A DNA stretch of 64,000 bases from an uncultured Candidatus Saccharibacteria bacterium (GTDB lineage Bacteria > Patescibacteriota > Minisyncoccia > Phycocordibacterales > UBA9973), in the NCBI GenBank assembly GCA_964571085.1, contig CAZMZT010000001.1, forward strand, positions 18,719 to 82,718, read 5' to 3'. The notes under the pieces were generated by a model that ran no database searches, was not told where the DNA came from, and worked only from the letters and a program-made list of their open reading frames with translations. Below are positions 25,349 to 43,412 of this stretch, piece after piece. Position 1 is the first letter of the stretch. Each line of letters begins with the position of its first letter. The position numbers and the translations under genes were made by a program.

Positions 25349-26299
25349 ATGAAAGATAACGAAAAAAAACTAAATAAGAAAATTAAAAATCAAAAGTGGA
25401 TCATATGCTCTCTAGCGCTAGTGTTGATTGTCAGCGGAGTGTTTTCATTTAAGTACTTTAGTGCTGATTCAGACTTTAGATCAGACTTCCCACTACTGGA
25501 TCCTTCTCGTAAATTTATTCCAAGCGAGAACTACATTACCAACATTGAAGAGCTCAGAGGGTACCTGAGAGAACTAGGTAGTAAGTATCCTGACTCAGTC
25601 ACTGTGTACTACGAGAACATCAACTCAGGTTCTAACATCTCTATCAACAAAGATTTGCGATTGTTTCCTGCTTCACTGTCTAAACTCGTCCAAGCTATAC
25701 TCATAGTAAATAAAATTGAAAAAGGTAAGATGTCTTTTGATCAAGAGTTGAAAGCAGAGCCTGGTGATATTTCTTCTGATTCAGGAGATCTGTACAAAAC
25801 TATCGGCGACAAACCCATGACCGTAGAAAAACTTCTCGAAGAGTTGCTTGTGAACTCTGACAATACTGCACAAAATATTTTCAGACATCAGCTAAACTTC
25901 GAAGACTACCTAGACTTTCAAAACACTACAGGTCTGCAGGATTTGTATAATGATCAAGGTTTCATCTCAGCAAAAGAATACACTCGTATCCTCCGAGTAC
26001 TCTATACTTCTAACTTCTTGAAACCAGAGAATTCACAAAAGATTCTAGGCTACATGGCCAGCTCTGAGTTCAAAGATTACCTATCACAAGGTGTACCTAG
26101 TGATGTCGAGTTTGCTCACAAGTATGGAGAAAATATAGACTACAATATTTTTGCTGATTCAGGGATTGTATATGTTCCTGGCAAGCCTTATATGATATCT
26201 GTCATTATAAAGGGTAAGGACTCTACAAATGAGACCCGCAAATGGGCTACCAACCTCATGAAAGAAATCTCAGAACGTGCTTATAATATAAGCAAATAG
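25349..26299 (+). CDS. Membrane-anchored serine hydrolase with a class A beta-lactamase/PBP-like fold.
   Basis: An N-terminal TM helix is present, with 'SLSKL' (SxxK) and 'NSDN' (SDN) motifs. A KYG sits at the position of the usual KTG. Confidence 0.5.
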   Translation: MKDNEKKLNKKIKNQKWIICSLALVLIVSGVFSFKYFSADSDFRSDFPLLDPSRKFIPSENYITNIEELRGYLRELGSKYPDSVTVYYENINSGSNISINKDLRLFPASLSKLVQAILIVNKIEKGKMSFDQELKAEPGDISSDSGDLYKTIGDKPMTVEKLLEELLVNSDNTAQNIFRHQLNFEDYLDFQNTTGLQDLYNDQGFISAKEYTRILRVLYTSNFLKPENSQKILGYMASSEFKDYLSQGVPSDVEFAHKYGENIDYNIFADSGIVYVPGKPYMISVIIKGKDSTNETRKWATNLMKEISERAYNISK

Positions 26300-26488: not shown

Positions 26489-29400
26489 GTGAAAAAATTT
26501 TTTGTTAATTCAATAAAGCTTTTTGCGATAATATTTATCGTAGGGTTTTTGTGTTTTGGTTTCAAGCCCTCCAATGCAGATGCTGCGATTCGTACTTGGA
26601 CCGGGACAGCTAGTGGATCTTGGTCCAATCCTTCCAACTGGGGAGGTACTGCACCTGTCACAGGGGATGACTTGGTTTTCCCAGGTGGCGCATCAAACCT
26701 TTCGAACACCAACGACCTCATAGAAAACACAATAATCAACTCCATCACTCTATCGGGGAGTGGGTACACCCTCTCTGGGAATTCTATAATACTTGGTCCA
26801 GGTCTTGCAGGTATCACCGATAGTGCTTCTTCTGGTGGCAATACCATTGCTCTCAACATTCGCCTCGGTGCAACTCGAGACATCATAGTGACAAACACCG
26901 CAGAAACACTTACTATCAGTGGAACAATTGCAGGTGTAGGTGGTATCAACAAAGAAGGGACAGGCAAGATCGTGCTATCTGGTGGAAATAAATTTGGTGG
27001 AATTTTGAAAATCAATGTCGGTGTCGTCAATGCACAAAGCAATACCGCACTCGGGACAATTGCAGCAGGTACTGAAGTTGTCGGAGGAGCAGCCCTCGAA
27101 CTACAAGGCAACATAGATATCAGTTACGAAGCATTAGCTCTTCGTGGATATGGAGTGAGTAATACTGGAGCTCTAAGAAATATTAGCGGAACAAATACAT
27201 ACCGCGGACTTATTACGTTGTCTTCTGCTGGAGGTACAGAGATAGCTTCTGACTCAGGAACTCTGACTATTACTGGTGGAACTACAGGGAATGCTCCGTT
27301 AGTATTTGATGGATCAGGGAACATGGTGTTCTCTACAGCACCAATTGCTGGTAGTGGTGCGATTACTAAAAATGGTTCTGGTACAGTAACTTATAATTTC
27401 CCAAACACTAACACTGGTCTACTAACCATCAACGCAGGAACTATTCTGTACGGAGTTGATAACGCTATACTTACAAGTGCGATCACTATCACAGGTGGGA
27501 CACTTGATGTCGCAACATACTCTGATATGGTTGGTACTGTTACACTCGGAACTTTAGATTTAGCGAGTGGAACCATTACAGGCTCTACTGGCATACTAAG
27601 CAGTGCAGCGTTTACTCTATATAATGGAACAATTAGTGCAATTATTGCCGGGGATGGAGGAGCTCTGACTAAAAGCACGACTGGTACAGTTGTGATAACA
27701 CGCCCTAATCAATACACTGGTGCTACAACTATAAGTGCGGGTATTTTAGAGATTCAAGACAGCACTTCACTTGGTTTGATAGATGGCATTACCACAGTGG
27801 CAGCTGGTGCGACTTTGCAGATAAACGGGGACGGACTCTCTATTCCTGAATACATAACTTTTTCTGGAACAGGGCATCTTTATACAGGAGCAATAAGGAA
27901 TAGAACAGGAGACAATACCCTAACAGGCTTACTAACTCTAGGTGCAGCCGCAATGATAGAGTCTGATGTCAGCACTACTCTGACTATAGATAGCAAAGGC
28001 CTATCTGCCACAACCTTGGGTCTTACTGTCGGTGGTGCTGGAAACACAACCTTTACTTCTACCGCACCTATATATGGTACAAGCGCAACACTTACAAAAA
28101 ACGATACTGGTGTACTAACTATAGAATCATTTAGTAACTTTACTGGAGCTACAAACCTCCTTCGTGGAGAGGTCGTGCTCGGCAGTTATGGAGCTATACC
28201 TAGATCTACTATTACTATAGGTAGTGGTGGGGAACTAACACTCGACAACACCTCTACAACTATCCTCGATCGTGTCAGTGACACAGCGGCTCTAACTATG
28301 AACGGAGGGTCTCTGAACTTTATAGGCAACCCGTCGTCTCTCGCATCAGAGACAATCGGCGCACTCACTATCGCCTCGGGACACAATACTGTCACTGTCA
28401 CTCCCGGCGCGGGCGGGCCTACCACTATGACTTTTGCAAGTTTGTCGCGTACGGCTGGAGCCACGGTGCTCTTCCGTGGGACTAAACTTGGTTCGTCCCC
28501 GGGGCCCAATATATCTACGATTATGTTCACTACTACTCCAGCAGTACTAGGTGCAGGTGGTGCAGCAGGTACTACTACCACAAGTGTCATCAAAGGTGCA
28601 TTTGGAGATAATTCTCTCTCTGGGACAGGGAGTGATATGGTCGTGCACAACCTTGGAAATACAAATGGCCTCCGACTTCTCAATGGCGCTGGATTCTCTG
28701 GTGAGTATGCTTTCACACTTGCGACAAATGCCAATGTAAAATTAAATGCAGATACTGTAGCAAGTACAGCAAGTATCAACTCTCTTATTCTAGATGGATT
28801 TAGTATTACAAATCCTGGGAGTGCGCAAACTATCACGCTCTCATCTGGATCTCTTGCTGGAAATATTCTTATGAATTCAGCGACTAGTATTGCCGGAGCA
28901 AATACAACGCTTGGCATAACTACTAACCACCTCGATATTTTGACAACAGCTAGCGCTACTATCTCTGCGGTCATTGGTACTGCAGTGGCTGGATCAGTTG
29001 CTATCAGTGGTACAGGGAGTGTCACAGCAAGTACTGCTAACCTCTACACCGGTACAACATTTATCAACAATGCAACACTTTTTGCGGGAGCAACTAACAT
29101 ACTCTCAAGTGGAGGTGTGACGGTGGTAGGGGGTACATATGATTTAGGAAACTTCAGTGACACAGTTGGTGCTGTAACACTTCAAAATGGAACTATAACT
29201 AGTGGATCAGGTACTTTATCAGGAACTTCTTATAGTCTTCGTGAAGGAACTGTCAGTGCAATCTTGGGTGGAGGAGCCGCAGCTGTCACGCGTGTTGCTA
29301 CAAGTGCAGCTGCTGATAGTGTGGTGACTCTAACTCGTGACAATACCTATACCGGAACAACAACTATTACGAGCGGTATACTTAGACTCGGCGCAACGGG

Positions 29401-32400
29401 TGGTGGAACAAATACACCACTTGGTACCACTGGTGGGGGAACACTTATCGCAAGTGGAGGAGCCCTAGATCTCAACGGTTTTACTCTGGGAACAGCTGAA
29501 GCTATAACATCTTTAGCAGGAACAGGTTTCGGTGCTTCTGGTAGTAGTAACATGGGTGCTATTATGAATAGCTCAGCTTCACCCGTGAGTTACAGCGGAG
29601 CTCTGACTCTTACCGCCGCCGCTCGTATCAATGCCGATGCTGGAGCTCTCACTATTAGTGGTAATGCATCAGGAAACTTTGCTCTAACTTTCGCTGGCTT
29701 TAGCAATGTTACTTATTCAGGAGTACGTTCTGGTACTAGTACTATCGTAAAAGTTGGAGTAAATACACTGACCCTTTCAAACGGAAGCTCGTCTTATACA
29801 GGTCTAACTACTATCAGTGAAGGTACTGTAAAAGTTGGCGCAGCATCAGTCGGTGGAACAAACTCACCGCTAGGCACAACTGGAGCTGCCACTACTGTAG
29901 CTCTCGGTTCTCGCCTTGATCTTAATGGATTTAACCTAGGAATAGCAGAACCACTAACTCTAAACGGTGTCGGGTATGGGCTCGGAGACTTTGCGAGTGG
30001 TGCTCTCATGAATAGCTCAGGAACTTCTGTGACCTATACTGGGCTTATCACACTCGGCTCGGCATCTACTATTAAAGCTGATTCAGGGAATATTAGCTTA
30101 ACAGCTGCTGGTACCATATCAGGGAATACTTTTGGTCTAACTATTGGAGGAGAGGGTACGGGCACACTTTCAAGTATTATAGGTACAACATCAGGAACAG
30201 TTACAAAAATAGGTTCTGGCACTTGGACACTTTCTGGACAGAGTACTTTTACTGGTGCGACATCTGTTAACCTTGGAACCCTAAAACTCGGAGTAAGTGG
30301 GGGAGCAACAAACAGTCCTCTCGGCACTACAGGTGCTGGTACGACTGTTTATACTGGTGCAGCTCTAGATTTCAATGGCTTTACTATGAGTACGGCCGAA
30401 GCTTTAGCGATTAATGGACGAGGAATTAATGACGGAGGAGCATTTATCGGGAGTAGTGGTACCTTTAGTGGCGCTATTACTCAAGGTACAGATTCTCGCA
30501 TTGTAAATGCTTCTGGAACATTGACACTTTCTGCTGCAGTTGGAGGAGCATTTGCTCTATATATAGGAGGTGCAGGTAATATTACTACTAGTGCTGTTTT
30601 TGCTGCAAGTGCTCTCTCTATTACAAAACAAGGTGCAGGGACTATGACTGTAACAGGAGCTAATTTATATACTGGAATCACACGTGTTGATGCTGGCACA
30701 TTTGCTTATGCAGCTACCACTACTCTTGTCGGTACAAACTTGATAATGAATGGAGGTACATTTAATAATGGAGCAAATGCTGACACTATCGGTACGGTCA
30801 CACTTATCGGTGGAGTTATTACCAACTCAGCAGCGCTCACAGCAGCGACTTCATATACTCTAGAGAGTGGAACTATTAGTGGAATTATCGCTGGTGCAAT
30901 TCCTGTAATAAAAAATACAAACAATACTGTTACACTCACTGGTGTGAATACTATAAGTAGTAGTACTACAATCAATGCCGGAACACTTACTATAAGTGGC
31001 TCAGGTTCAGCAACAGCCACTACTATTACTGTAAACCTAGGTGGTACACTAACTCTAGACAACAGTACCACTGCTGTCGCTAGTCGCCTGGGCGATGCGC
31101 TTGCCCTTACTATGAACGGAGGTAACTTCAACTTTATCGGTAATTCTGCTGCAGCTTCTTCTGAAACTACAGGAGCGCTCACTCTATCAACTGGTCATAA
31201 TGTGGTGACAGTTACTCCTGGTGCTGGAGGTTCAACAACTATGACGTTTGCAAGTCTTGCCCGTACGGCTGGAGCGACTGTCCTCTTCCGTGGTACAAGT
31301 TTGGGATCCAACGCAGCATCCAATGTTTCTACTCTAGTATTTACTGCTACACCAACCCTAACAGGGGCAGGTGGCGCGTCTGGGTCAGCGACAGTTAGTG
31401 TCATCAAGGGTGCATACGGCGATAGCTCTCTCTCTGGAACAGGTTCTGATATGGTTACATACCAGGGTGGAGTAGGACTCCGCTTGCTAAATGGCGCTGG
31501 ATTTGCCAATGAATACAGTGGTGACTTCCAAACTGCCAATGCCAATGTAAAGCTCACAGCTGACCGTCCAGCAGTAGCTACCAACACCAACTCACTCATA
31601 CTCAATGGCTTTAGTGTTACTAACCCTGGTGGAGCAGTTACAATACCCATGGCTTCTGCTTCGCTCGCTGGAAACATCCTGATCAACTCCGCAAACAACA
31701 TCGCTGGTGCAAACACAACTTTAGGTATTACAACATTTGAGCTTGATATCTTGGCTACAGCTAACTCCACCATCTCAGCTATTATCGGTACGGCAACGAC
31801 TGGTTCAGTAGTCTTGAGTGGGACTGGCAATGTCACCTTAAGCGCAGCCAACCCTTATACAAGTACAACATTTATTAACGGCGCCACTCTTACCGCTGGA
31901 GCAAGCAATGTGTTATCAAGCGGGGGAGTGACTATGAAAGGTGGTTTGTATAATCTCAATGGCAATTCAGATACTATAGGGGCTCTTACTCTTACTGCTG
32001 GTAGTGTATCTACAGGAGCAGGAACACTAACACTAGGAGGAACAGTGACAACTATAGCCAATGCCAACTTCACTTCACTTATAACAGGGAACTTGGGCCT
32101 CGGCGCAGCTAGAACATTTGATATTGGCGACGGGCTTATGGACAATGATGCGATTATTACTGCGGTAATAAGTGGTGCTTTCGCTCCAACAAAAAGTACT
32201 GGTGCCGGAGTGTTAATGTTTTCTGGCGACAATACTTACTCTGGTTTAACTACAATTAGTGCTGGAACATTACGTCTCGGTGCAGCTGGTGGAGTAACCA
32301 ACACACCACTTGGGACAACGGTTGCAGGAACAACAGTATCTGGTGCAAGCTCGGCCCTCGACTTGAATGGATTCACTCTAGGCACTACCGAGGCTCTGAC

Positions 32401-35400
32401 TTTATCTGGAGCTTTGGCAACAGGTGCACTACAAAATACTTCTAGTACATCTGTGAACTATAGTGGGCTAGTTACTCTGGGTGCTGCTAGTACTATTATT
32501 GCTAACTATGGAGATATAAATATTACAAATACTGGTAACATAACCGGTAACACATTTGGACTAACTATAGGAGGTGCAGGGAATGGAACACTCGCAAGCA
32601 ACCTAAATACTACAACTGGAACTCTAACAAAAAATGGCCTCGGCCTCTGGACTATATCTGGTGGAGCTAGTACATTTACAGGTCTTACTACTATCAGTGC
32701 TGGTACTTTAAAGCTCGGCTCTGCAGGGAGTGGGTCAAATACACCACTCGGTACAAATGCCGGGGGAATCACTATCACCTCTGGAGCGGTCTTTGATGTT
32801 AATGGATTCACTTTAGCTACAGCAGAACCAATTGGATCTTTGAATGGAACAGGTCTTGCAAGTATTGGGGCCTTTATAAATAGTTCCAATAGCAGTGTGT
32901 CTTATAGTGGTGCAATTACTCTCGGCACAGCCTCCCGTATTGTAAATCATGGTACTGGAACTATGACAATAAGTGGCAATATCTCAGGAAACTTTGCCCT
33001 TACAATAGTTGCTGTAGGTAATTTTACTCAGGCTACTAATAGTGTTCGCTCAGGTTCTAGTACAATAATAAAAGAAGGATCAGGTACATTAATTTTAGGA
33101 GGGCAGAATAGCTTCACTGGTGCTGTTACGGTAAGTACTGGAAAGCTCCAGCTTGGAGCAAATGGAGGTGTAACAAATACTCCGCTTGGTACCATAGCAG
33201 GAGGTGTGATTGTATCTGCTGGAGCAGTTCTAGATCTCTCTACTTTTACAGCTGGTGGAGCTTCAACTTGGGAGCCTCTAACTCTAGCTGGTAGTGGTAT
33301 CCTAAACGGCGGAGCACTGATAAGTAACTCTTCAACTGGCAGTACTTTCGCCACTGTTGCCCAGACAACTACACGCATTGTAAACAATGGTGCAGGGACC
33401 CTTACATTTACAGGAGCAGTTACTGGAGCTTCTGCTCTTTGGATAGGTGGAACAGGTAATACGACAATATCAGGAGCACTAAACACTGCTGGTATTCTGC
33501 TTACTAAATACGGTGCTGGTAGTCTGACTCTAAGTAGTGCTGTAAATATAAACACCTCACTCGTTCGTATTAACGAAGGGACACTTGTCTACGGAGTAGC
33601 CGATGCACTATCTACACCACCCGTAACTATAGCTGGAGGAACTCTAAATTTGAATGGATTCAATGAAACCAACATCGGGTTGATCACTATGATCGATGGA
33701 TCTATTGTGAATACTGGGGGAGCAGGAACATTAGTCTCTACAGCAACAGCTACTGTTGAAAAAGGCACAATCAGCGCTGTGATTGCTAGTACAGTATCAA
33801 CATTACTTACAAAAAACAGCGCCGGGAGATTCATAATGTCAGGTAACAATACTTTTACAAGTACTGCTATTACATTTAATGCTGGGTATATAAAACTTCA
33901 ACATAGCAACGCACTCGGTGCTGCTGGAACTGCACTTGCATCCACTATTTCTGCTGGGGCAACTCTAGAGCTTGAAAATGGTATTACAATACCAAGCACC
34001 AAAACCATAACAGCCAATGGTACTGGTATGATCAACACTGGTGCTATTAGAAATGTAAGCGGCACAAACTCGATAGGAGCAAACCTGACTTTAGGATCAA
34101 CCAACGTACGTGTGAACTCGGACAGCGGAGCTCTTACTATACCTACGGTGTCTGGTAACACATTTAACTTGATAGCCGGTGGTGCTGGAGACACAGCGAT
34201 CACTGGTGCGATCAGTACGACAAGTGGAAATCTGACTAAAGATGGTGCTGGTACACTCACACTTTCTGGAGTCAACACATTTTCTCGTGCTACAAATATA
34301 ATTTCTGGAACAGTTGTAGCCAACTCTACTAGTGCACTTGGTGATGCAAGCTCTACCAACACTTTGATTTTCAACGGTGGAACATTGCAAGCTTCAGGAG
34401 ACATCACATCTATATCTAGTCGTGCAGTAACCTTAAACTCAGGCGGGGGCACTATCGATACAAATGGTAACGCCGTAAGTATCGCCGGAACTGTAGGATC
34501 AATAGGAGGACTCACTAAAACCGGGGCTGGTACTCTGATCATAACTGGGGTCACTACTATCGGCGGGGACCTGACTATTTCTACAGGTACTTTTGTAGCA
34601 CCAACAAGTCTAACTATAAGCGGTGACCTCGATAATAGTGGCACATTTACGCATAGTAACGGTACTGTCACTATAGTACCTACAAGTCCTACACTCACTA
34701 CAAACATCCTAGGTAGTTCTGATACTACTTTCTATAATTTCACTAATACTACTGCTGGCTCAACTCTACAATTTAGAGAAGGCAACACTTATACTTTTGC
34801 AAATGTCTTCACACTGACAGGAGCTGACGGGAACCCTATCTCGATAAACTCTGACACTCCTGATTCACAATGGCTTATGACGCTGTCAGGCTCAGCTTCT
34901 ATGTCTTATATAAAAGTAAAAGACAGTGGTTGTGTTGGTGGTAACAATGTAGGAGCGAGTAGCACTATAATCGATTACGGTAACAATGGCTCATGTTGGC
35001 AATTTATTGCTGTAATTAAAAGTGGTGGTGGCGTTGTTGAAGCTTCTGCTCCTCCAGATGGAGATGTCGGTGGTGGTGGAGGAGGAGGTAGCGGTGGTGG
35101 AGGAGCAACCAATGCAATAGCTACCGCAGTAGTGTCTTCTAATGTTGTACAGAGTGTCACTATAAATGCTGGAGGTAGTGGTTATACATCTGTACCAACT
35201 GTACTATTTTGTGGCGGTGGTGGAACTGGAGCTCTTGGAACCGCAGTTCTGACTAGTGGGGCAGTGTCTAGTGTTACAGTAGATAATGGGGGATCAGGAT
35301 ATTCTAGTGCCCCTACTGTAGTATTCAATAGTAACTGTCCTACAACTGGTGGAGGCGGCGGTGGAGGCGGCGGTGGCGACATAGGGTTCATATATAAAAT

Positions 35401-35461
35401 AAAGCGAATGTTTGCTTTCTTAGAAAATTTTGGCTTTAATAGTATTAAAAATTATATATAG
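26489..35461 (+). CDS. Giant (2990 aa) secreted protein with autotransporter-associated beta-strand repeats (PATR), a putative adhesin. It uses a GTG start.
   Basis: A signal peptide is present. The N-terminal 'IRTWTGTASGSWSNPSNWGGTAPVTGDDLVFPG' is the classic PATR lead-in. It has dozens of 'TLTLSG.N.YTG.TTI..GTL.LG' repeats. No C-terminal beta-barrel, LPXTG or TM was seen. Confidence 0.8.
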   Translation: MKKFFVNSIKLFAIIFIVGFLCFGFKPSNADAAIRTWTGTASGSWSNPSNWGGTAPVTGDDLVFPGGASNLSNTNDLIENTIINSITLSGSGYTLSGNSIILGPGLAGITDSASSGGNTIALNIRLGATRDIIVTNTAETLTISGTIAGVGGINKEGTGKIVLSGGNKFGGILKINVGVVNAQSNTALGTIAAGTEVVGGAALELQGNIDISYEALALRGYGVSNTGALRNISGTNTYRGLITLSSAGGTEIASDSGTLTITGGTTGNAPLVFDGSGNMVFSTAPIAGSGAITKNGSGTVTYNFPNTNTGLLTINAGTILYGVDNAILTSAITITGGTLDVATYSDMVGTVTLGTLDLASGTITGSTGILSSAAFTLYNGTISAIIAGDGGALTKSTTGTVVITRPNQYTGATTISAGILEIQDSTSLGLIDGITTVAAGATLQINGDGLSIPEYITFSGTGHLYTGAIRNRTGDNTLTGLLTLGAAAMIESDVSTTLTIDSKGLSATTLGLTVGGAGNTTFTSTAPIYGTSATLTKNDTGVLTIESFSNFTGATNLLRGEVVLGSYGAIPRSTITIGSGGELTLDNTSTTILDRVSDTAALTMNGGSLNFIGNPSSLASETIGALTIASGHNTVTVTPGAGGPTTMTFASLSRTAGATVLFRGTKLGSSPGPNISTIMFTTTPAVLGAGGAAGTTTTSVIKGAFGDNSLSGTGSDMVVHNLGNTNGLRLLNGAGFSGEYAFTLATNANVKLNADTVASTASINSLILDGFSITNPGSAQTITLSSGSLAGNILMNSATSIAGANTTLGITTNHLDILTTASATISAVIGTAVAGSVAISGTGSVTASTANLYTGTTFINNATLFAGATNILSSGGVTVVGGTYDLGNFSDTVGAVTLQNGTITSGSGTLSGTSYSLREGTVSAILGGGAAAVTRVATSAAADSVVTLTRDNTYTGTTTITSGILRLGATGGGTNTPLGTTGGGTLIASGGALDLNGFTLGTAEAITSLAGTGFGASGSSNMGAIMNSSASPVSYSGALTLTAAARINADAGALTISGNASGNFALTFAGFSNVTYSGVRSGTSTIVKVGVNTLTLSNGSSSYTGLTTISEGTVKVGAASVGGTNSPLGTTGAATTVALGSRLDLNGFNLGIAEPLTLNGVGYGLGDFASGALMNSSGTSVTYTGLITLGSASTIKADSGNISLTAAGTISGNTFGLTIGGEGTGTLSSIIGTTSGTVTKIGSGTWTLSGQSTFTGATSVNLGTLKLGVSGGATNSPLGTTGAGTTVYTGAALDFNGFTMSTAEALAINGRGINDGGAFIGSSGTFSGAITQGTDSRIVNASGTLTLSAAVGGAFALYIGGAGNITTSAVFAASALSITKQGAGTMTVTGANLYTGITRVDAGTFAYAATTTLVGTNLIMNGGTFNNGANADTIGTVTLIGGVITNSAALTAATSYTLESGTISGIIAGAIPVIKNTNNTVTLTGVNTISSSTTINAGTLTISGSGSATATTITVNLGGTLTLDNSTTAVASRLGDALALTMNGGNFNFIGNSAAASSETTGALTLSTGHNVVTVTPGAGGSTTMTFASLARTAGATVLFRGTSLGSNAASNVSTLVFTATPTLTGAGGASGSATVSVIKGAYGDSSLSGTGSDMVTYQGGVGLRLLNGAGFANEYSGDFQTANANVKLTADRPAVATNTNSLILNGFSVTNPGGAVTIPMASASLAGNILINSANNIAGANTTLGITTFELDILATANSTISAIIGTATTGSVVLSGTGNVTLSAANPYTSTTFINGATLTAGASNVLSSGGVTMKGGLYNLNGNSDTIGALTLTAGSVSTGAGTLTLGGTVTTIANANFTSLITGNLGLGAARTFDIGDGLMDNDAIITAVISGAFAPTKSTGAGVLMFSGDNTYSGLTTISAGTLRLGAAGGVTNTPLGTTVAGTTVSGASSALDLNGFTLGTTEALTLSGALATGALQNTSSTSVNYSGLVTLGAASTIIANYGDINITNTGNITGNTFGLTIGGAGNGTLASNLNTTTGTLTKNGLGLWTISGGASTFTGLTTISAGTLKLGSAGSGSNTPLGTNAGGITITSGAVFDVNGFTLATAEPIGSLNGTGLASIGAFINSSNSSVSYSGAITLGTASRIVNHGTGTMTISGNISGNFALTIVAVGNFTQATNSVRSGSSTIIKEGSGTLILGGQNSFTGAVTVSTGKLQLGANGGVTNTPLGTIAGGVIVSAGAVLDLSTFTAGGASTWEPLTLAGSGILNGGALISNSSTGSTFATVAQTTTRIVNNGAGTLTFTGAVTGASALWIGGTGNTTISGALNTAGILLTKYGAGSLTLSSAVNINTSLVRINEGTLVYGVADALSTPPVTIAGGTLNLNGFNETNIGLITMIDGSIVNTGGAGTLVSTATATVEKGTISAVIASTVSTLLTKNSAGRFIMSGNNTFTSTAITFNAGYIKLQHSNALGAAGTALASTISAGATLELENGITIPSTKTITANGTGMINTGAIRNVSGTNSIGANLTLGSTNVRVNSDSGALTIPTVSGNTFNLIAGGAGDTAITGAISTTSGNLTKDGAGTLTLSGVNTFSRATNIISGTVVANSTSALGDASSTNTLIFNGGTLQASGDITSISSRAVTLNSGGGTIDTNGNAVSIAGTVGSIGGLTKTGAGTLIITGVTTIGGDLTISTGTFVAPTSLTISGDLDNSGTFTHSNGTVTIVPTSPTLTTNILGSSDTTFYNFTNTTAGSTLQFREGNTYTFANVFTLTGADGNPISINSDTPDSQWLMTLSGSASMSYIKVKDSGCVGGNNVGASSTIIDYGNNGSCWQFIAVIKSGGGVVEASAPPDGDVGGGGGGGSGGGGATNAIATAVVSSNVVQSVTINAGGSGYTSVPTVLFCGGGGTGALGTAVLTSGAVSSVTVDNGGSGYSSAPTVVFNSNCPTTGGGGGGGGGGDIGFIYKIKRMFAFLENFGFNSIKNYI
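28241..29225 (+). repeat. Copy 1 of a roughly 320-aa intragenic duplication within the PATR gene.
   Basis: It is protein-level collinear with 31052..32045 ('...ALTMNGG.(L/F)NFIGN....SET.GALT...GHN.VTVTPGAGG.TTMTFASL.RTAGATVLFRGT...'). Nucleotide identity is roughly 75%. Confidence 0.7.
31052..32045 (+). repeat. Copy 2 of the intragenic duplication.
   Basis: See copy 1. Confidence 0.7.
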
Positions 35462-35530: not shown

Positions 35531-36031
35531 ATGGAAGATAAAAACACAATTAAAATAAACGCTCTTCCTTATGTAGAGGAGCCTCCTACCGTTCCTGGGC
35601 TAAAACCTAAAAAGAGATCAATGTCCAAGCAAAAACTTATAAATAGGGTGTTGTTGGTAGTCTTGTTGATAGCGATAGGTTTCGGGGGGTATTTTTACTA
35701 TAGACTCAGCTCTCTACAAAAGAACCCTACAGCAGAAGCTTCCAAGGAAGCAAAAGACCTGCTCGGCAGGGTAGCAAAGATCTACCTTATCCCAACCGGA
35801 GAAGAGCCAACAGTAGCAACCGTCTCTGACCCAGAAAAGTTGAAAGACCAATCGTTCTTCTCTGGAGCACAAAAAGGAGACAAAGTACTTATATTTTCAC
35901 AGTCAGGCAAAGCCGTGCTATACAGACCTAGTATAAACAAGATCATTGAGGTTGCTCCTATAAATAATAAAAATGATAAACCAACAACACAAGAAAAATC
36001 AACAGGTCCTCTTCAAGACAAAACATTTTAA
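35531..36031 (+). CDS. Single-pass membrane protein (N-in) with a roughly 100-aa extracytoplasmic domain. It is the first gene of the surface cluster.
   Basis: A TM helix 'VLLVVLLIAIGFGGYFYY' follows a basic stretch. Confidence 0.5.
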   Translation: MEDKNTIKINALPYVEEPPTVPGLKPKKRSMSKQKLINRVLLVVLLIAIGFGGYFYYRLSSLQKNPTAEASKEAKDLLGRVAKIYLIPTGEEPTVATVSDPEKLKDQSFFSGAQKGDKVLIFSQSGKAVLYRPSINKIIEVAPINNKNDKPTTQEKSTGPLQDKTF

Positions 36032-37061
36032 TTGGATATTGGTTACAGTATTTGCCCTGTCTTCTTTTTATCCAATTTTCAACATATATGCGGCTCTTTC
36101 TTGTACTGTAACTACACAGGCATCATGTAATGGAAGTGGATATACCACACTTCTACGCATGTCTGGATCTACTAATGCTCACTCTGAACTCCCGAGTCAG
36201 TCCAATGTCAACTATGACGACGATGTAGTGTGTTGTTCTGGTGTTTCAACTATTGGTAACTCATGTAGTGCTTCTAACAAGCAAATATTTGCACGCATCT
36301 CAGGTTCGACAAATGGAACTATACAAGAGACAAGTGTAAACACTTACGGCACCAATGTCTGTTTGTCTGACTCTGTAGAGAACGACACTATCACTGTCGG
36401 TTATCAGAACTCCAACTGCTCTGGTTATGACACTACACTCGCTTCTATTTCTAGTTCAGACAATGCCCATGTAGGGGATGGCAGTGCATACACAAGGAAA
36501 ATCTGTGCGACGATAGTACAGCCAACTATAACTTTCGACCTCGACACTGCATCTGACTTTACAAATGGTGAGTCGACCGCTCCATACTTAGTTGAGCTTG
36601 GGGCTCTTTCTACTGGATCTGTAAATAATTCCAATGGGTCTAGCGTACGTATGATAGTAGCCGAAGGAGAAACCAATGCACCGGGTGGAATGGTAGTGAC
36701 TGTATATAATGCAGGTGGTGCTGATGGGCTACGGTCGGCATCGGTACCTACTGACAAGATTCCAAGCACTACAGGAACTATGTCTGCGGGTACAGCTCGA
36801 TACGGACTATGTGTTGCGACATCTGGACTTACAGGATTTTCTAGAGCAACAGGGTACAGTAGCGATTCTTGTTCACTAGGTTCTGGAACCAATGGTGTAA
36901 GGGCACTCTCATCAACTCCTACAGACATATTGAACTCAGGAGGTGGAACGCTGTCCGGTGGACATGCTGAAATAGTGGTCAATGCGACAATAAGCCCTAC
37001 AACTCCTTCTCATAATGACTATGAAGACTCACTTACATTCATTGCCACAGGGACTTTCTAG
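35973..37061 (+). CDS. Secreted beta-rich Ser/Thr/Gly-rich protein, paralog A. It is a candidate pilus/fibre subunit.
   Basis: A signal peptide is present. The C-terminal ~170 aa align with the 37182 product and both end in 'NDYxDxITFIATxTF'. The 5' end overlaps the upstream gene by 59 nt, so the true start may be downstream. Confidence 0.6.
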   Translation: MINQQHKKNQQVLFKTKHFNWILVTVFALSSFYPIFNIYAALSCTVTTQASCNGSGYTTLLRMSGSTNAHSELPSQSNVNYDDDVVCCSGVSTIGNSCSASNKQIFARISGSTNGTIQETSVNTYGTNVCLSDSVENDTITVGYQNSNCSGYDTTLASISSSDNAHVGDGSAYTRKICATIVQPTITFDLDTASDFTNGESTAPYLVELGALSTGSVNNSNGSSVRMIVAEGETNAPGGMVVTVYNAGGADGLRSASVPTDKIPSTTGTMSAGTARYGLCVATSGLTGFSRATGYSSDSCSLGSGTNGVRALSSTPTDILNSGGGTLSGGHAEIVVNATISPTTPSHNDYEDSLTFIATGTF

Positions 37062-37181: not shown

Positions 37182-38408
37182 ATGAAAATATTGAAATTCA
37201 AGTCATCAGTGCTGTCAAAGGTTGCAAGTTCTATTACTATGGTCGCCCTAATCCTTGTAACTTCAGGTGGCCCACAGATCGCAGAAGCTTTGGCTATCAC
37301 ATCATCAAAAGACACAGCTACTCGTCTACAGATCAGTACTACAGCTGACCATACTATAGTATTCACACTCCCGACTGGTATTGACTTTGATTCTGCTGGT
37401 AACACTGACTTCCTCCGTGTTGATTTTCCTGGTACTTTTACTGCTGGAGGCACTTGGGCTGCTGGAGACTTCACTTTCGATGATGGTGCTGCAAGAACTA
37501 TAAATGCTGTTGAACAAGGTGCTGGTGATGTAGACTGTACAGTCGCTGCCGGTGTAAACAACGTATGTATTTCTGTTGACACAACCAATAATATTTTCAC
37601 TATTAAACCATCAGCTACATATACAGCATCAGCAACAGGAGCAACTGTTACATTTACGATCGATGGAACAACTGCAGACGGTACACTCACAAATCCTTCT
37701 TCTGTAGCAGCTACAAACATAGATTTTCAACACTGTGACAACGTGGCTGCTTGTGACTCAGCGTTTGCTTCAACTCACTCAAGTCAGATAGCTTACGCTA
37801 TTATCGATGACGACACTGTAGCCATCACAGCAACGGTAGGCTCTTCAATTACTTTTGACCTAGACACAGCAGGAAGTAATGACAGTACATGCGATACAGA
37901 CGAGACAGCAGCACCATACGCTATAGCCCTCGGAGCAATATCAACGGCAGATACTAGAATATCTGGTGCTACAGATGCTGTAAACCTTATCTGTGTAGAC
38001 CTCGATACTAATGCTGGTGGTGGAGCAGTAGTCACAGTTTCAAACGCGAACGGAGCAAGTGGTCTGGTCTCTACTTCTAGTCCAACAAATGACATAGATA
38101 CTACCGATAACACTGCTGTTACTGCTGGTACTGAAAACTATGGTCTATGTATTGTTACAACTACAGCAGGTACTGGTACACTCGATGATGAAGGAGGATA
38201 TGATGGCGACACTTGTGCTGCCAATAGTGCGACTAATGTCGTACAAGCCATGTCTGCAGTCACTCCTGAGACTATCTTTGATACAAATGGTGCCCCTATA
38301 GCAGGCGGACGTGGAACAATAGCTGTAAATGCTTCAATTGCCACAGGTCAAGCGGCTCTCAATGACTATACTGACGCTATTACATTTATAGCGACTGCTA
38401 CATTCTAA
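37182..38408 (+). CDS. Secreted beta-rich protein, paralog B of the 35973 product.
   Basis: A signal peptide ending 'AEALA' is present. Shared blocks include 'ITFDLDTA...APY...LGA(L/I)ST', 'GG.VVTV.NA.GA.GL' and 'YGLC' plus the C-terminal 'ITFIATATF'. Confidence 0.6.
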   Translation: MKILKFKSSVLSKVASSITMVALILVTSGGPQIAEALAITSSKDTATRLQISTTADHTIVFTLPTGIDFDSAGNTDFLRVDFPGTFTAGGTWAAGDFTFDDGAARTINAVEQGAGDVDCTVAAGVNNVCISVDTTNNIFTIKPSATYTASATGATVTFTIDGTTADGTLTNPSSVAATNIDFQHCDNVAACDSAFASTHSSQIAYAIIDDDTVAITATVGSSITFDLDTAGSNDSTCDTDETAAPYAIALGAISTADTRISGATDAVNLICVDLDTNAGGGAVVTVSNANGASGLVSTSSPTNDIDTTDNTAVTAGTENYGLCIVTTTAGTGTLDDEGGYDGDTCAANSATNVVQAMSAVTPETIFDTNGAPIAGGRGTIAVNASIATGQAALNDYTDAITFIATATF

Positions 38409-38429: not shown

Positions 38430-39455
38430 ATGAATAACTACCAGAACAACAGAGGACGATTCGCACTCTTGATTTTAATCATTGCTGTTTTCTTTGTTTC
38501 GAAAAATGCTCATGCTCTCAGCTTGTCTCCTGTACGTGTAGAAGTCAGTGGTAACCCAGGCGAGACAGTCACCAGGGAGATGGTCATCACCAATGAGAGT
38601 GAAGGTAGCTCAATATACTACTCTTCATATGCCAACTTCGAAGCCTCAGGTGATACCGGTAGTCCAGCATTCGTAGAGCCAAAAGATGATATAGGTACAT
38701 GGCTCTCTACAACTGCATCTATAGACTTGAAAGCCAATGAGTCAAAGACCGTTACATTCAAAATAGAGATTCCTAAAGATGCAGAACCAGGAGGACACTT
38801 CGGATCAATATTCTGGGGTACAAATCCAAACAATGGCTCAAGCGGGGTGGCTGTAGGTTCAAAGACAGGTATACTCATACTTCTTTCAGTTAATGGTGAT
38901 GTAAAAGAAGCTGGAGGCCTCGTCGACTTTAATACCAAAGACAACAAAATCTTTTACAACACTCTCCCGGTGTCTTTTACTTATAGGTTTCGTAACGATG
39001 GAGGTGACCGTATAAAACCAGTAGGCAAGATAGTAATGCATGATCTGTTTTATATACCAGAAGATAAAATAGATGCAAACCCAGGTGGAGGCAACATACT
39101 TCCATCAAGCACTCGACGCTTCAACGTTGACTGGGTCAAGGATCCACGAGCGAAGGACTATGTAGCACCAAGTGGTGTAGTAGGTAAGTTCTTTGGCCAA
39201 GCAATATACCAGTGGAACAACTACGCCTTTGGCCCATATTTTGCCAAGCTCAACCTGCTGTACAGTACAGATGCTATAAGAGTAAAAGACACAGTTTTCT
39301 TCTTTGTTTTTCCTTGGCAATTATTAATATGCCTTGCCATTATTTTCTTCACTGTATTTTGGGGCGGCAAAAAACTAATTCGACGCTATAACAAGCATAT
39401 TATACAGAAGGCACGTCTTGGCATGAACAAACCAAACGATGCCACTCATGTATAG
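38430..39455 (+). CDS. Secreted Ig/chaperone-like beta-domain protein with a C-terminal TM anchor and basic tail.
   Basis: A signal peptide is present. 'LSLSPVRVEVSGNPGETVTREMVITNESEGS' resembles PapD-like or DUF916-like Ig-fold openings. The C-terminus has a TM 'LLICLAIIFFTVFW' plus 'KKLIRRYNKH'. Confidence 0.5.
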   Translation: MNNYQNNRGRFALLILIIAVFFVSKNAHALSLSPVRVEVSGNPGETVTREMVITNESEGSSIYYSSYANFEASGDTGSPAFVEPKDDIGTWLSTTASIDLKANESKTVTFKIEIPKDAEPGGHFGSIFWGTNPNNGSSGVAVGSKTGILILLSVNGDVKEAGGLVDFNTKDNKIFYNTLPVSFTYRFRNDGGDRIKPVGKIVMHDLFYIPEDKIDANPGGGNILPSSTRRFNVDWVKDPRAKDYVAPSGVVGKFFGQAIYQWNNYAFGPYFAKLNLLYSTDAIRVKDTVFFFVFPWQLLICLAIIFFTVFWGGKKLIRRYNKHIIQKARLGMNKPNDATHV

Positions 39456-40305
39456 AAAATCTCTAACTAAATTCATATTACTCGTCTTGTTCTTTTTTGC
39501 TGTATCGCATACAGTTTACGCTGTGGATGTGGGGGTATCTGCTTCTGTGGGTACCATAACTATTACTCCGACTGATGATGGTGGAGGAGGGATAGACACA
39601 AGTGTTGTATTCTCTGGACTTGCTTATCCTGGCGCCACTGTCCATATATGGAAAGACGGAATTCCTTCACAGGTGGTTATGGCAGATGCAAATGCTCGCT
39701 TTAGTGTTACGCTTTCTGAAACATATAACCCAAGTGTACTGTATACTCTATATGCCATAGATAAGTCTGGGCGTAGATCACTACTTATCAACTATCCTCT
39801 GGTGGTTAAAAACGGCTATGTGACCCAAGTAAGTGGTATCAGATTTGCCCCAACTATCACTACAGATAAAAGTGAGGTAAAATTTGGCGACTATATAACA
39901 GTATCTGGCTACTCTGTACCAAACACATATATAGACGTCGTTATATCAGGATCAGTAAGTTCGACTTACTATGTCCAAAGCAAACCTGACGGAGTTTATC
40001 AGATTACAATACCACTTATAGGTTTTAAAAAGGGTGCATACGATGTATATTCTAATTACCAAAATGATAAGAAGATAAGTAAAGTCATAAAGTTTGTTAT
40101 TGGAGATGTAAATATATTGAGCATCGACCTCACTACAAATATCCCAGGAGATTGTAATGCCGACCAGATTATAAATCTTGTCGATTTCTCTGTGGTTGCC
40201 TTTTGGTATGGGAAGCCAAATCCACCAAAGTGTGTCGACACAAATTCTGACAAAGTCATAAACCTTACCGACTTCTCAATACTCGCATTTTATTGGACTG
40301 GGTAA
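39439..40305 (+). CDS. Secreted protein with two Ig-like repeats and a C-terminal dockerin domain.
   Basis: Two calcium-binding loop repeats, 'DCNADQIINLVD' and 'DTNSDKVINLTD', fit D-x-N-x-D-x-x-x-N-x-x-D. Each is followed by a hydrophobic helix ('FSVVAFWYG' / 'FSILAFYWTG'). Confidence 0.6.
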   Translation: MPLMYRKSLTKFILLVLFFFAVSHTVYAVDVGVSASVGTITITPTDDGGGGIDTSVVFSGLAYPGATVHIWKDGIPSQVVMADANARFSVTLSETYNPSVLYTLYAIDKSGRRSLLINYPLVVKNGYVTQVSGIRFAPTITTDKSEVKFGDYITVSGYSVPNTYIDVVISGSVSSTYYVQSKPDGVYQITIPLIGFKKGAYDVYSNYQNDKKISKVIKFVIGDVNILSIDLTTNIPGDCNADQIINLVDFSVVAFWYGKPNPPKCVDTNSDKVINLTDFSILAFYWTG

Positions 40306-40325
40306 TGTATAATGTTTATATAACT

Positions 40326-41201
40326 ATGAAGATACTTATCTACACTATAGCCATTTTCTTACTAACCTCATCTGTGTCTCATGCAGCTCTGGTGTCTGTA
40401 TCTGCACCAAAGGTTGCTACAGAAGGACAGGATTTTAGTGTTTTGGTTAATCTTAATACAGAAGGCGCATCTGTGAACTCTTTTGATATAAAGTTATCGT
40501 ACCCTGTAGATGTAGTTTCATTCTCTGGCTACAAAGAAGAAGGATCCATCAAGCGCCTATGGCTAACATCACCAGTAGACAAAGGTGGGGAAATACACTT
40601 TAGTGGGATTATACCTGGTGGGGTAGATGGGATGTATGATCCTGATAAAAAAGAACTACAACCAATACCTCTTTTGCATTTATTATTTTCTACAAGAGAC
40701 GTAGGTCAAGGAAGCTTTACTATAAAAGAATCAAGTATTCTTATTAACGATGGTAAAGGTACATCACTAATCCACACTAGAATTGATTCACCTATAAGTG
40801 TATCTAAATCACTAGATTCATCTTATGATAAGAATTCCACTCGCATTAAATCAGCAGACACAGTGCCACCCCTGCCTTTTGTTATAGAATTCATAGAAGC
40901 AGGTCTATTCTCGAGGACACCGTCTATGATTGTCTTTTCTACTACAGACGCAGAATCAGGCGTGAAATCTTATCAACTTCGCGTAGCAGGTGATAATTGG
41001 GAAGATATATCAAGTCCAACACCTATAAGTAAGGGCCTTGTAAAAAGGGACGTAGTAGTTAGGGCGGTAGACTTCGGAGGCAATATACGTGAGTCAAATG
41101 TAGAAATACCTGGTATACTTTCTAATATACAGCTTATAGGGATAGTACTTATAGGTTTTGTTTGTTACTTTGTATTTTTTGTGTTAAAAAGGAAAAGATG
41201 A
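40326..41201 (+). CDS. Membrane-anchored protein with an N-terminal cohesin-like domain.
   Basis: A signal peptide is present. 'ALVSVSAPKVATEGQDFSVLVNLNTEGASVNSFDIKLSYPVDVVSFSG' matches the cohesin pattern V.V.....G..F.V.V.......V...D..L.Y...V. The C-terminus has a TM 'LIGIVLIGFVCYFVFFVL' plus KRKR. Confidence 0.55.
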   Translation: MKILIYTIAIFLLTSSVSHAALVSVSAPKVATEGQDFSVLVNLNTEGASVNSFDIKLSYPVDVVSFSGYKEEGSIKRLWLTSPVDKGGEIHFSGIIPGGVDGMYDPDKKELQPIPLLHLLFSTRDVGQGSFTIKESSILINDGKGTSLIHTRIDSPISVSKSLDSSYDKNSTRIKSADTVPPLPFVIEFIEAGLFSRTPSMIVFSTTDAESGVKSYQLRVAGDNWEDISSPTPISKGLVKRDVVVRAVDFGGNIRESNVEIPGILSNIQLIGIVLIGFVCYFVFFVLKRKR

Positions 41202-42313
41202 AATTCTACATAAAAACAATACTATATAGTTTTTTTATAGTCGTATTGTTTAGCACTACGAGTGTGTTTGCAGCACCTGCATCACTGTCCATAACTAAAC
41301 CATCTGGTAGTGTACAAGAAGGAGATCGGGTCACACTAAGTATTAAAGTAGAGTCTACTGACCAAGCTATCAATGCCATATCTGGAGTTGTATCATTCTC
41401 TGAAGATACTCTAAAGACTATATCTGTAAGTAGGGATAGTAGCATATTAAACATCTGGACCCGGGATCCTAATGTAGGTAGGAATAAGGTCACATTTGAA
41501 GGTGTAATACTCAACCCTGGTTATAGGGGAGCTGGTGGGACACTTTTCAATATTACATTTGAAGCCAAGAAATCTGGTCGAGCTACTGTTTCTTTTACTG
41601 AAGGAGCAATCCTTGCCAATGACGGACTTGGTACTAATGTCATAAGTGGACTTTCATCTATCAATTTTAATATTACTCCAGGTGCTGGGGCTCTAGACTT
41701 GTCTGGGGTGCCTATCGCCCAAACAACACCAAGGAGACTACAAGCATTGCCGGTCATTACTGAGTATTCACAATCAGTTTATTCTAAACAAACTGCTTAT
41801 CTAAGGGGTAGAGGAGAGCCAGGCGCTATGACAAAAATTTCCTTTGAAGATCTATCGCAGAAATCTTTCGGAGAACAATTCTTGGACTTTGTTCAATCAA
41901 AAAAGAAACGCCTTAGTGATGTCCTTGTCCAAAACAATGAAAAAGGTTTATTTGAATATGTCACACCCAACAACCTAATAGCAGGGGTATACAACGCCAC
42001 CCCATTCCTAGTTGAAGATGATACAAACATAGAAAAGCCTGGTCTCGGTGTTCAGCTTTTTGTAAATGACAGCAAGATAGTCAAAGGCTTGATAGTCTTT
42101 ATAAATATACTCCTCCTACTTATACCAATAGTTGGGCTTATAATGCTTATTTACTTTATCCCGTGGTATTCGTCACGCCGTATGCGTATTATGAAGAGAC
42201 GCATGGGTCTCGAAGAAGAGAAGATTATACTCACCGAGCATCATTTGGAGCATGAAGATAAGCTCTTATATAAAGACCCGCTAGAAAACACAAATACTGA
42301 AAAAAGCAGTTAG
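41198..42313 (+). CDS. Second membrane-anchored cohesin-like protein.
   Basis: Its ATG overlaps the upstream stop as ATGA. 'ASLSITKPSGSVQEGDRVTLSIKVESTDQAINAISGVVSFSEDTLKTISV' is cohesin-like. A C-terminal TM and a basic 'SSRRMRIMKRR' stretch are present. Confidence 0.55.
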   Translation: MKFYIKTILYSFFIVVLFSTTSVFAAPASLSITKPSGSVQEGDRVTLSIKVESTDQAINAISGVVSFSEDTLKTISVSRDSSILNIWTRDPNVGRNKVTFEGVILNPGYRGAGGTLFNITFEAKKSGRATVSFTEGAILANDGLGTNVISGLSSINFNITPGAGALDLSGVPIAQTTPRRLQALPVITEYSQSVYSKQTAYLRGRGEPGAMTKISFEDLSQKSFGEQFLDFVQSKKKRLSDVLVQNNEKGLFEYVTPNNLIAGVYNATPFLVEDDTNIEKPGLGVQLFVNDSKIVKGLIVFINILLLLIPIVGLIMLIYFIPWYSSRRMRIMKRRMGLEEEKIILTEHHLEHEDKLLYKDPLENTNTEKSS

Positions 42314-42332: not shown

Positions 42333-43412
42333 ATGAAGCGACCATATATCCTGCTGACCTCTCTATACCTTATTGCCATACTTAGTTTCCCTCTTTTAGG
42401 TAATGCTGAGAGTAAAATACTTAACCTAGAAGAGAATTTGTGGCTCAGATCTCGCAACAACACCATTGTCGTCTATCCTGAAAAGAATTTCCCCCCATAT
42501 TCTTATCAAAACTCTTCAGGAATACCACAGGGTCTGTCCATAGACTATATCGAAGTGATAGCTCAGAAAATAGGAGCAAAGATCCAGTATTTACCTGCTC
42601 GTTCTCGATCTCAAATACTTGATGATGTAAAACAAAGCAGTAAAGGAGATGTGATTACATCTTTAGCTGACACAAAAGATAGGGGAGATATACTGTATTT
42701 CTCAGATACTTATGTCACTACTCCAGCTGTTATTGTTGTAAGAAAAGATTCGAATAAGAACAATCTAACCCTCAACGACCTGACTGGTAAAAAGGTCGCT
42801 ATTGGTGGTCAATATGCAGTTGAGGAATTCGTGAGAACTAATAATCCTAGGATTGTCATTGAGTCCGTCAGCGACAACGAACTTGGTTTACAGCAAGTAG
42901 TTCTAGGCGAGGTGGATGCTGCTATTATGGATATTACATCTCTGTCTTATTACTTATCCAAACAAGTTTTAAATAGTGTTAAGGTTGTTGGTAGCACTGG
43001 TTTTGACTACAAACTCTCGTTTGCTGTACCAAAAGACAAGCAGATACTCCAATCAATCCTCGATAAAGGATTACAACAAATAAGCACTAATGATAGGCAA
43101 ATAATCAAAGATAAATGGGTAGTCGTACCAAACGAAATAAACAAAACTTCATTAATCTCCTCCTATATTTTAGACAATCTAATATCTATAATCTTGTATC
43201 TGATACTTTGTGTCATAATAGTTATCCTCATTATACGACTAAGGAAGAGGAGATTTACATTTAGAAGGCATAGTCATCTAGATGAGGTAAAAGAATTGAA
43301 AGAAGAGATGCTCGAACTGGAAGACACCAGTAAAGGCCTGATAGAAGAGCTAAATAACGTTAAAATCTTGGAGGAAGACATAAAAGAAAAAATAAAGAAG
43401 ATAGAAAATTAG
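42333..43412 (+). CDS. Membrane-anchored SBP_bac_3 (periplasmic-binding-protein type 3) domain protein with a short cytoplasmic coiled-coil tail.
   Basis: A signal peptide, an SBP fold ('LTGKKVAIGGQYAVEEF...EVDAAIMD'), a TM 'IILYLILCVIIVILII' and a tail 'ELKEEMLELEDTSKGLIEELNNVKILEEDIKEKIKKIEN' are present. Confidence 0.65.
   Translation: MKRPYILLTSLYLIAILSFPLLGNAESKILNLEENLWLRSRNNTIVVYPEKNFPPYSYQNSSGIPQGLSIDYIEVIAQKIGAKIQYLPARSRSQILDDVKQSSKGDVITSLADTKDRGDILYFSDTYVTTPAVIVVRKDSNKNNLTLNDLTGKKVAIGGQYAVEEFVRTNNPRIVIESVSDNELGLQQVVLGEVDAAIMDITSLSYYLSKQVLNSVKVVGSTGFDYKLSFAVPKDKQILQSILDKGLQQISTNDRQIIKDKWVVVPNEINKTSLISSYILDNLISIILYLILCVIIVILIIRLRKRRFTFRRHSHLDEVKELKEEMLELEDTSKGLIEELNNVKILEEDIKEKIKKIEN

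Follow-up and report, generated by a model that had tools for sequence, protein, structure and literature searches.

A 64,000-nucleotide stretch of DNA from an uncultured Candidatus Saccharibacteria bacterium (the window; contig CAZMZT010000001.1) carries, at positions 38430 to 39455 of its forward strand, a gene whose 341-amino-acid (aa) product, the target, is a distant Patescibacteria relative of the WxLIP/CscA proteins, anchored in the membrane and with its immunoglobulin (Ig)-like domains extracellular. On the basis of profile comparisons, the first of these domains (domain 1) is homologous to the peptidoglycan-binding domain (PGBD) of WxLIPs. By analogy with those proteins, we consider it rather probable that the target tethers the secreted paralogs encoded next to it to the membrane, by capturing their shared C-terminal domain through beta-strand complementation.

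The presumed way of life of Patescibacteria is attachment to host cells, and their surface proteins are almost all annotated as 'hypothetical'. The target family is large and well conserved, and sits within one of the most syntenic non-housekeeping blocks among the loci examined. The link to WxLIPs provides it with a testable mechanism, the tethering of anchorless secreted proteins by strand insertion, with the solved structures 9i1y and 9i25 as template. The WxLIP fold would extend beyond Lactobacillales and Bacillales to a distant phylum, where its partners are not recognisable as WxL proteins; the name would then understate both the age and the versatility of the interacting module.

A Patescibacteria relative of WxLIP/CscA

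The preliminary description of the window had read positions 38430-39455 as one open reading frame (ORF), and this holds: residues 30-60, LSLSPVRVEVSGNPGETVTREMVITNESEGS, are identical to those quoted there. The gene and the parts of its product are as follows; AF2 stands for AlphaFold2, pLDDT for the predicted local distance difference test score, TM for transmembrane, HBD for host-binding domain and pI for isoelectric point.

38430..39455, + strand: target gene, 341 aa, ATG start; membrane-anchored WxLIP/CscA-like surface protein (single ORF, homologs, Foldseek, hhalign)
38430..38516, + strand: signal peptide, aa 1-29, with A-H-A at its end (helix aa 8-25 in the AF2 model, hydropathy peak aa 11-32)
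38517..38891, + strand: domain 1, aa 30-154, beta-sandwich homologous to the WxLIP PGBD (DUF916, PF06030) by hhalign and PF06030 matches
38610..38675, + strand: conserved beta-hairpin, aa 61-82 (YYSSYANFEASGDTGSPAFVE), candidate donor strand for partner binding (conservation, low pLDDT)
38913..39299, + strand: domain 2, aa 162-290, beta-sandwich plus one helix, at the position of the WxLIP HBD (DUF3324) (AF2 model, collinear hhalign)
39300..39368, + strand: C-terminal TM helix, aa 291-313 (FFVFPWQLLICLAIIFFTVFWGG) (hydropathy; modelled helix aa 296-331)
39369..39455, + strand: basic cytoplasmic tail, aa 314-341, plus stop; motif RYN(R/K)xII (conservation, pI)

In the AF2 model (mean pLDDT 81.8; alignment of 40 homologs), an N-terminal hydrophobic helix is followed by two all-beta domains (~aa 30-154 and 162-290) and a long C-terminal helix. 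The first helix and the A-H-A behind it correspond to the Sec signal peptide of WxLIP/CscA; cleavage presumably follows A-H-A, whose last residue, A29, is invariant across the 40 homologs. Invariant in the same set are N69, F70, E71, A72, G74 and G77 of the hairpin, F292, V293, P295 and W296 of the TM region (P295 and W296 are also at least 90% conserved in 54 diverse family members) and Y320, N321 and I324 of the tail, and the ectodomain has further conserved stretches outside the hairpin (PGGHF, NDGGDRIKP and ANPxxGNILPxSTR). Over aa 319-341 the tail, KKLIRRYNKHIIQKARLG..., has a pI of 10.45, as compared with 5.3 for the ectodomain and 9.14 for the whole protein. The statement in the preliminary description that the protein ends in a TM helix and a basic tail as in CscA is thus confirmed by the helix at aa 291-313, the tail KKLIRRYNKHIIQKAR..., the length of 341 aa and the overall pI.

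Database searches returned 548 homologs of the target at E<=1e-3; the 120 best, which are the ones listed, have 52-99% identity and are nearly all 320-350 aa long. When 1.84 billion cluster representatives were searched with a profile, 9,047 matched at E<=1e-3, of which 4,289 reached E<=1e-10 and 918 reached E<=1e-30. From the 548 homologs and the 918 representatives at the strictest threshold we conclude that the gene is real and clearly under selection. Homologs from species-level genomes share 53-70% identity. All named organisms that carry them belong to the Patescibacteria/Parcubacteria group (Paceibacteria, Nomurabacteria, Minisyncoccia), and the source names of the relatives are all 'hypothetical protein'. 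We found no paper in the full-text literature that links Patescibacteria to WxL or DUF916.

The architecture of CscA/WxLIP proteins consists of DUF916, DUF3324, a C-terminal TM helix and a basic tail; CscA proteins have 320-380 aa and a pI >9, CscB proteins have a pI of 4-5, and each cluster combines one cscA with 1-4 cscB (PMC1534035, PMC10599100). PF06030 is WxLIP_PGBD, formerly DUF916, and in WxLIPs PF11797 (HBD) always comes second; the two domains have been proposed to bind peptidoglycan and host, respectively. A motif near the N-terminus of the PGBD, NQIDKxxxYFDLK, is highly conserved in WxLIPs, the distribution of which has been described as 'almost entirely Lactobacillales and Bacillales'.

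Fold comparison leads directly to these proteins. When the target model was searched against the PDB with Foldseek, the top match was 9i1y_A, a WxLIP from Enterococcus faecium (E 7e-12), and the second was 9i25_C, a WxLIP bound to long WxL (E 2.6e-11), both domains being aligned in each case; RbmA and the chaperone-usher chaperones CfaA/CsuC appeared at lower ranks. In sequence searches, a profile of the 54 diverse members ranked 9i1y and 9i25 first among 177,635 PDB sequences (E 0.045), collinear over domain 1. Nothing was found in the PDB sequences with a narrower profile of close homologs, the broader profile alone reaching WxLIP.

Further evidence comes from alignment of the 54-member profile, by hhalign, with seven genuine WxLIPs, that is, proteins annotated as 'DUF916 and DUF3324 domain-containing' from Enterococcus, Lactococcus, Lactiplantibacillus and Lactobacillus plasmids. 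The two profiles match with 97.6% probability (E 3e-12, 225 columns), target aa 29-281 being paired with WxLIP aa 34-278. Controls were clean: a reversed profile scored 25, 20 column shuffles scored at most 20, and unrelated beta-sandwich families gave no match. At E<1e-3, a hidden Markov model (HMM) of the same seven proteins recognised 51 of 270 proteins of the target family and none of 120 proteins of the paralog family. At seven positions (N55/N71, P115/P138, G121/G144, P225/P245, S227/S247, G268/G264 and Y270/Y266), a residue that is invariant in genuine WxLIPs is aligned with the same residue in the target family, where it is conserved. Hairpin aa 61-82 is aligned with the TNxNGxxxY loop of genuine WxLIPs, and G77 stands opposite a G conserved in the majority of them.

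Domain 1 alone aligns with the PGBD at E 8.2e-10 and does not cross-match the HBD. PF06030 itself remains below threshold in the target (21.9 bits vs a cutoff of 27.3); 13 of the 54 diverse members have a match to it, the best at E 2.9e-7, and three distant relatives carry precomputed matches. Of the two families between which the preliminary description had wavered for the N-terminal domain, the DUF916/CscA-like one is therefore upheld by fold, sequence-profile and profile-profile evidence, while the PapD-like one is not, there being no PapD_N match. DUF3324, also named there, was not recovered by its HMM: PF11797 has no match in 94 family members, and domain 2 and DUF3324 align only weakly. 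The full-length hhalign alignment nevertheless runs collinearly through domain 2, which raises the score from 60 to 95 and places LPxS opposite APNS and GxY opposite GxY.

In its architecture the target resembles WxLIP/CscA in having a signal peptide, two tandem Ig-like domains, a C-terminal TM helix and a basic tail, in its size, which falls in the range of 320-380 aa, and in its basic pI beside partners with acidic pI values of 4.0-4.8. It differs in its ~15% identity, the lack of NQIDKxxxYFDLK and a domain 2 that is barely recognisable as DUF3324, in the strong conservation of its TM helix and RYNxxII tail, and in its host, which belongs to Patescibacteria and not to Bacillota. The target family is thus a phylum-distant, unannotated branch of WxLIPs, with different partners and in a cohesin-dockerin context.

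Several other matches were set aside. Weak similarity to fn3_5, NPCBM_assoc (NEW3), Ig_VWA7 and GH123_N is taken as that of generic beta-sandwiches, because all four cover a single strand-loop, 'IxIPxDAxPG' (aa 88-127). Matches of the target to the NCBIfam models TafF (E 0.2) and PACE-CTERM (E 0.012) are insignificant, and PHROGs gave no match for it.

Upstream paralogs as candidate partners

The target gene lies directly after one to four acidic secreted paralogs with one common C-terminal domain, and this coupling is conserved. The two in the window are:

35973..37061, + strand: paralog A, 362 aa, pI 4.8, secreted; Cys-rich N-domain and shared C-terminal domain ending LTFIATGTF
37182..38408, + strand: paralog B, 408 aa, pI 4.05, secreted, two beta-sandwich domains; shared C-terminal domain aa ~220-408

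The preliminary description had regarded these products as paralogs, rightly so, given their 42% identity over 233 aa (E 8e-38). We followed the genes through 84 related loci (L001-L084) from ~80 species-level genomes, which were searched by tblastn with the window's cluster proteins. Paralog A is present upstream of the target in related loci, and the family as a whole comprises short (~270-aa) and long (~400-aa) forms with the C-terminal ~190-aa domain in common. The AF2 model of paralog B (pLDDT 83.7) has two beta-sandwich domains with generic fold matches, namely pilin-, adhesin- and cohesin-like Ig domains (integrin Ig domains, MSCRAMMs and CfaB pilin by Foldseek); no WxL chain is among the matches listed. 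A survey of ORFs in L001-L084 and in the divergent loci L092 and L093 found the tail T[FYW][IV]AT[GAS][TN][FY]-COOH in 128 upstream ORFs, including the Trp variants TWIATGNF and DWVATGNF; in the window the motif lies at 37040-37058 and 38387-38405.

WxL proteins are defined by a domain (PF13731) with two Trp-x-Leu motifs. Like the short and long WxL proteins, CscB and CscC, the paralogs are secreted, acidic and anchorless, share a C-terminal beta domain of ~190 aa, and have a terminal strand, YtxtLT[FYW]IA, that resembles YTxTLTWxL. They differ in lacking significant profile, HMM or fold similarity to WxL proteins, in their first motif (STNAxxGY or DTNAxGGA vs DxRGxxxGWxL) and in that the protein ends at the motif with an aromatic residue. 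The best local match between paralogs and WxL is the extreme C-terminal strand, which aligns in register (TpAgxYtxtLT[FYW]IA vs YTxTLTWxL). We therefore treat the paralogs as likely functional analogues of WxL proteins, perhaps very distantly homologous to them, but not as members of that group.

The tail strand of the paralogs is similar not only to the second WxL motif but also to the F-strand motif at the C-terminus of chaperone-usher pilins. The N-terminal half of paralog A (35973-36520) is Cys-rich, the protein having 10 Cys in total, and contains three (R/S)(M/I)SGSTN(A/G)H-like repeats; a comparable STNF motif, repeated three times, follows the signal peptide in the ~270-aa short forms.

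The preliminary description had suggested an assembly or anchoring factor for the paralogous subunits, and such a role would be in line with the strictly kept gene order. Our favoured explanation takes its mechanism from the genuine WxLIPs. For these, AlphaFold2 predicts that a poorly ordered hairpin of the PGBD becomes a strand that completes the WxL sandwich, and a complex of WxLIP with long WxL has been deposited as crystal entry 9i25 (the solved protein being EfmWxLIP1; 9i1y, 9i25). In the target, the tip of the domain 1 hairpin (aa 71-80, pLDDT 60) is among the two lowest-confidence 10-residue blocks of the modelled ectodomain, and an invariant hairpin with low pLDDT is the signature expected of a segment that becomes ordered on binding. 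We propose that the hairpin would insert as a beta-strand beside the terminal strand of the paralogs (...DYxDxLT[FYW]IATGTF-COOH) and complete their beta-sandwich, as in the E. faecium complex of WxLIP and long WxL. The otherwise anchorless paralogs would thereby be held on the membrane at the cell surface, alongside the tethering provided by a cohesin-dockerin pair encoded downstream. The target would act as an anchoring and stabilising receptor, not as an enzyme, and the operon would build a multi-protein surface complex.

Several observations weigh against this explanation or against the WxLIP assignment on which it builds. Many two-Ig proteins score well in Foldseek, RbmA and CfaA/CsuC for example (E 1e-10 to 1e-8), and the TM-scores of the target model against the PDB are modest (0.41-0.52). 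Domain 2 alone aligns weakly with the HBD (DUF3324; hhalign E 0.027). The N-terminal WxLIP motif NQIDKxxxYFDLK falls in an 11-residue deletion of the target, opposite ATNQIDRTQSY; the strand after that gap is retained (VEV vs FDL). The strongly conserved TM helix (FVFPWQ) and RYNxxII tail are not accounted for by this explanation, and their conservation suggests additional membrane or cytoplasmic contacts. On the side of the partners, Pfam WxL (PF13731) has no match in 36 members of the paralog family or in divergent ones, hhalign of the paralog profile against WxL alignments is non-significant, and broader paralog alignments from 86 loci pair only the last 16-17 columns (E 0.03-0.06).

The conserved block and competing explanations

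The order of the genes around the target is nearly invariant in the 84 loci, always on one strand: a small TM protein (43/84), one to four paralogs, the target (84/84), a Big_6/dockerin-like protein (82/84), a cohesin-like TM protein (79/84) and a cohesin TM protein (70/84), often followed by SBP_bac_3 proteins and gyrB. In the window, the start codon of the target lies 21 nucleotides (nt) 3' of the stop of paralog B, and the start of the next gene overlaps the target stop by 17 nt. A scan for promoters and terminators gave nothing above shuffled expectation, so that the operon boundaries are based on synteny and gene spacing only. Apart from the target and the paralogs, the genes concerned are:

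26489..35461, + strand: giant secreted PATR-repeat protein, 2990 aa, upstream of the block and loosely associated with it (PATR, 8 stretches, E 9.6e-35)
35531..36031, + strand: small N-terminally anchored membrane protein, 166 aa, first of the block (same position in 43/84 loci)
39439..40305, + strand: secreted protein with Big_6-like Ig and C-terminal dockerin-like domains, 288 aa (sub-threshold Pfam)
40293..41201, + strand: C-terminally membrane-anchored protein with cohesin-like N-domain, 302 aa (79/84 loci)
41162..42313, + strand: C-terminally membrane-anchored cohesin protein, 383 aa (Pfam Cohesin 26.1 bits vs cutoff 24.1; 70/84 loci)

The 288-aa protein, directly downstream of the target in nearly all loci, matches Big_6 (E 7.8e-5) and Dockerin_1 (E 5.2e-4), both below threshold, and the N-domain of the 302-aa protein matches the cohesin domain of its 383-aa neighbour (E 6e-9). 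Glycoside hydrolases are absent from the vicinity, and the three products together have the appearance of a cohesin-dockerin pair for anchoring, in which the dockerin protein is probably held by two cohesin-like anchors. The resemblance to cellulosome-type systems concerns the neighbours only, as the target has no cohesin or dockerin signature. It does flag a cohesin-dockerin pair outside any cellulolytic context.

A WxL gene cluster is defined as at least one WxLIP and at least two WxL proteins within four genes, and the genuine Bacillota clusters in the records examined have the order (LPXTG) - short WxL - WxLIP - long WxL. The target locus is similar in combining one copy of the WxLIP-like gene with one to four genes for small acidic secreted proteins in short and long forms. 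It differs in that the partners have no detectable WxL domain and in the presence of a dockerin protein and two membrane-anchored cohesin-like proteins. An LPxTG (CscD-like) gene was not noted in the target cluster, though no search was aimed at one.

Three other explanations compete with the capture of the paralogs, and in estimated likelihood we rank a stand-alone adhesin or wall binder above a chaperone-like platform, and the latter above a partnership with the downstream or giant proteins. As an adhesin, the target would be a self-contained membrane-anchored Ig-like protein that contacts peptidoglycan, S-layer or host and is merely co-expressed with its neighbours. The binding roles proposed for the PGBD and HBD of WxLIPs would suit it, as would the many conserved ectodomain residues well outside the hairpin (the three stretches named above) and the weak matches to generic Ig-like families (fn3_5, NEW3, CARDB-like). 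However, in 84 loci the target gene strictly keeps its place next to the paralogs, and the gene ends all but overlap, which points to a physical partnership; the identity of 53-70% across species-level genomes is unusually high for a host-facing adhesin; and the solved homolog was deposited in complex with a neighbouring gene product (9i25). We regard this explanation as unlikely, if still the best of the three.

A chaperone-like role, to which we give slightly less credence, would make the target a membrane-tethered assembly platform for a donor-strand-exchange fibre, comparable to PapD, CfaA or CsuC, with transient capping of the subunits followed by their head-to-tail, pilus-like polymerisation. 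In PapD-family systems, the chaperone lends a beta-strand to the incomplete Ig domain of a neighbouring gene's product, and an analogous function is what we propose for the target. CfaA, CsuC and EcpB, which also have two tandem Ig-like domains, are good fold matches (E 9e-10 to 3e-7), if in the second tier of the Foldseek results; the paralog model matches CfaB pilin, Gram-positive pilins and the fibre-forming TLP; and the one to four tandem subunit paralogs have an invariant C-terminal strand ending in an aromatic residue and, in the short forms, a conserved N-terminal strand-like segment. The target is nevertheless rejected as a member of the PapD family. PapD_N and PapD_C (PF00345/PF02753) have no match in the target (E<=1), in 40 members (E<=0.01) or in 54 members (E<=0.001), whereas hhalign specifically favours WxLIP; the block has no usher-like gene; and the permanent TM anchor is unlike the chaperones, which are soluble, periplasmic and usher-dependent proteins of diderms. 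Patescibacteria are generally considered monoderm.

The partner of the target could also be the downstream cohesin and dockerin proteins or the giant PATR protein, in which case the target would serve as one subunit of a scaffold in the membrane on which these are displayed. The dockerin-like gene overlaps the target stop and co-occurs with it in 82 of 84 loci, more constantly than either type of paralog, and the two cohesin-like proteins have TM helices against which the conserved helix and tail of the target might pack. Yet the anchoring of the cohesin and dockerin proteins is already accounted for by their pairing, in L092 and L093 paralog-like genes with the tail motif lie beside the target and no cohesin-like gene was detected, and the C-terminus of the giant protein was found upstream in only 18 of the 84 loci. 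This is the least probable of the explanations considered here. With a likelihood that we would place between those of the platform and of the downstream partnership, and thus as speculation, the capture of the paralogs can be taken further: the block might be a surface organelle found throughout Parcubacteria/Paceibacteria, the target might be the monoderm counterpart of the chaperone-usher system, capping the paralogs through donor-strand complementation and so priming a fibre or lattice of them for attachment to host cells, and the WxL/WxLIP clusters of Bacillota might be a sister branch of an ancient strand-complementation anchoring.

Other genes of the neighbourhood

The gene for the 166-aa membrane protein overlaps the annotated start of paralog A with its 3' end, by 59 nt. 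Its product also occurs in the divergent locus L092 (phmmer E 6e-25), and has faint FliL-like or anti-sigma-like matches only.

Upstream of the block, the 2990-aa product combines its 8 PATR (autotransporter passenger-type) repeats with Gly-rich stretches, and is preceded by a second giant ORF of 3240 aa at 15611-25333. Between both giant genes lies a gene for a Beta-lactamase2/Peptidase_S11-like protein (316 aa, E 1.7e-36) at 25349-26299. Giant genes are also present in L001-L003.

Downstream of the block are two tandem genes for SBP_bac_3 solute-binding proteins, at 42333-43412 and 43464-44537. At the C-terminus of each product, a TM helix is followed by a tail that is charged and coiled-coil-like (ELxxVKxLEEDIKEKIK), an arrangement that is unusual for binding proteins of the ABC type. 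The first type is kept downstream of the block in 34 of the 84 loci.

In L092 and L093, the tail-motif genes are flanked by a second WxLIP-like gene with a C-terminal TM anchor (L092:5945-6859 and L093:10457-11476), with weak PF06030 or fn3_5 matches. Some lineages thus have two anchors per cluster.

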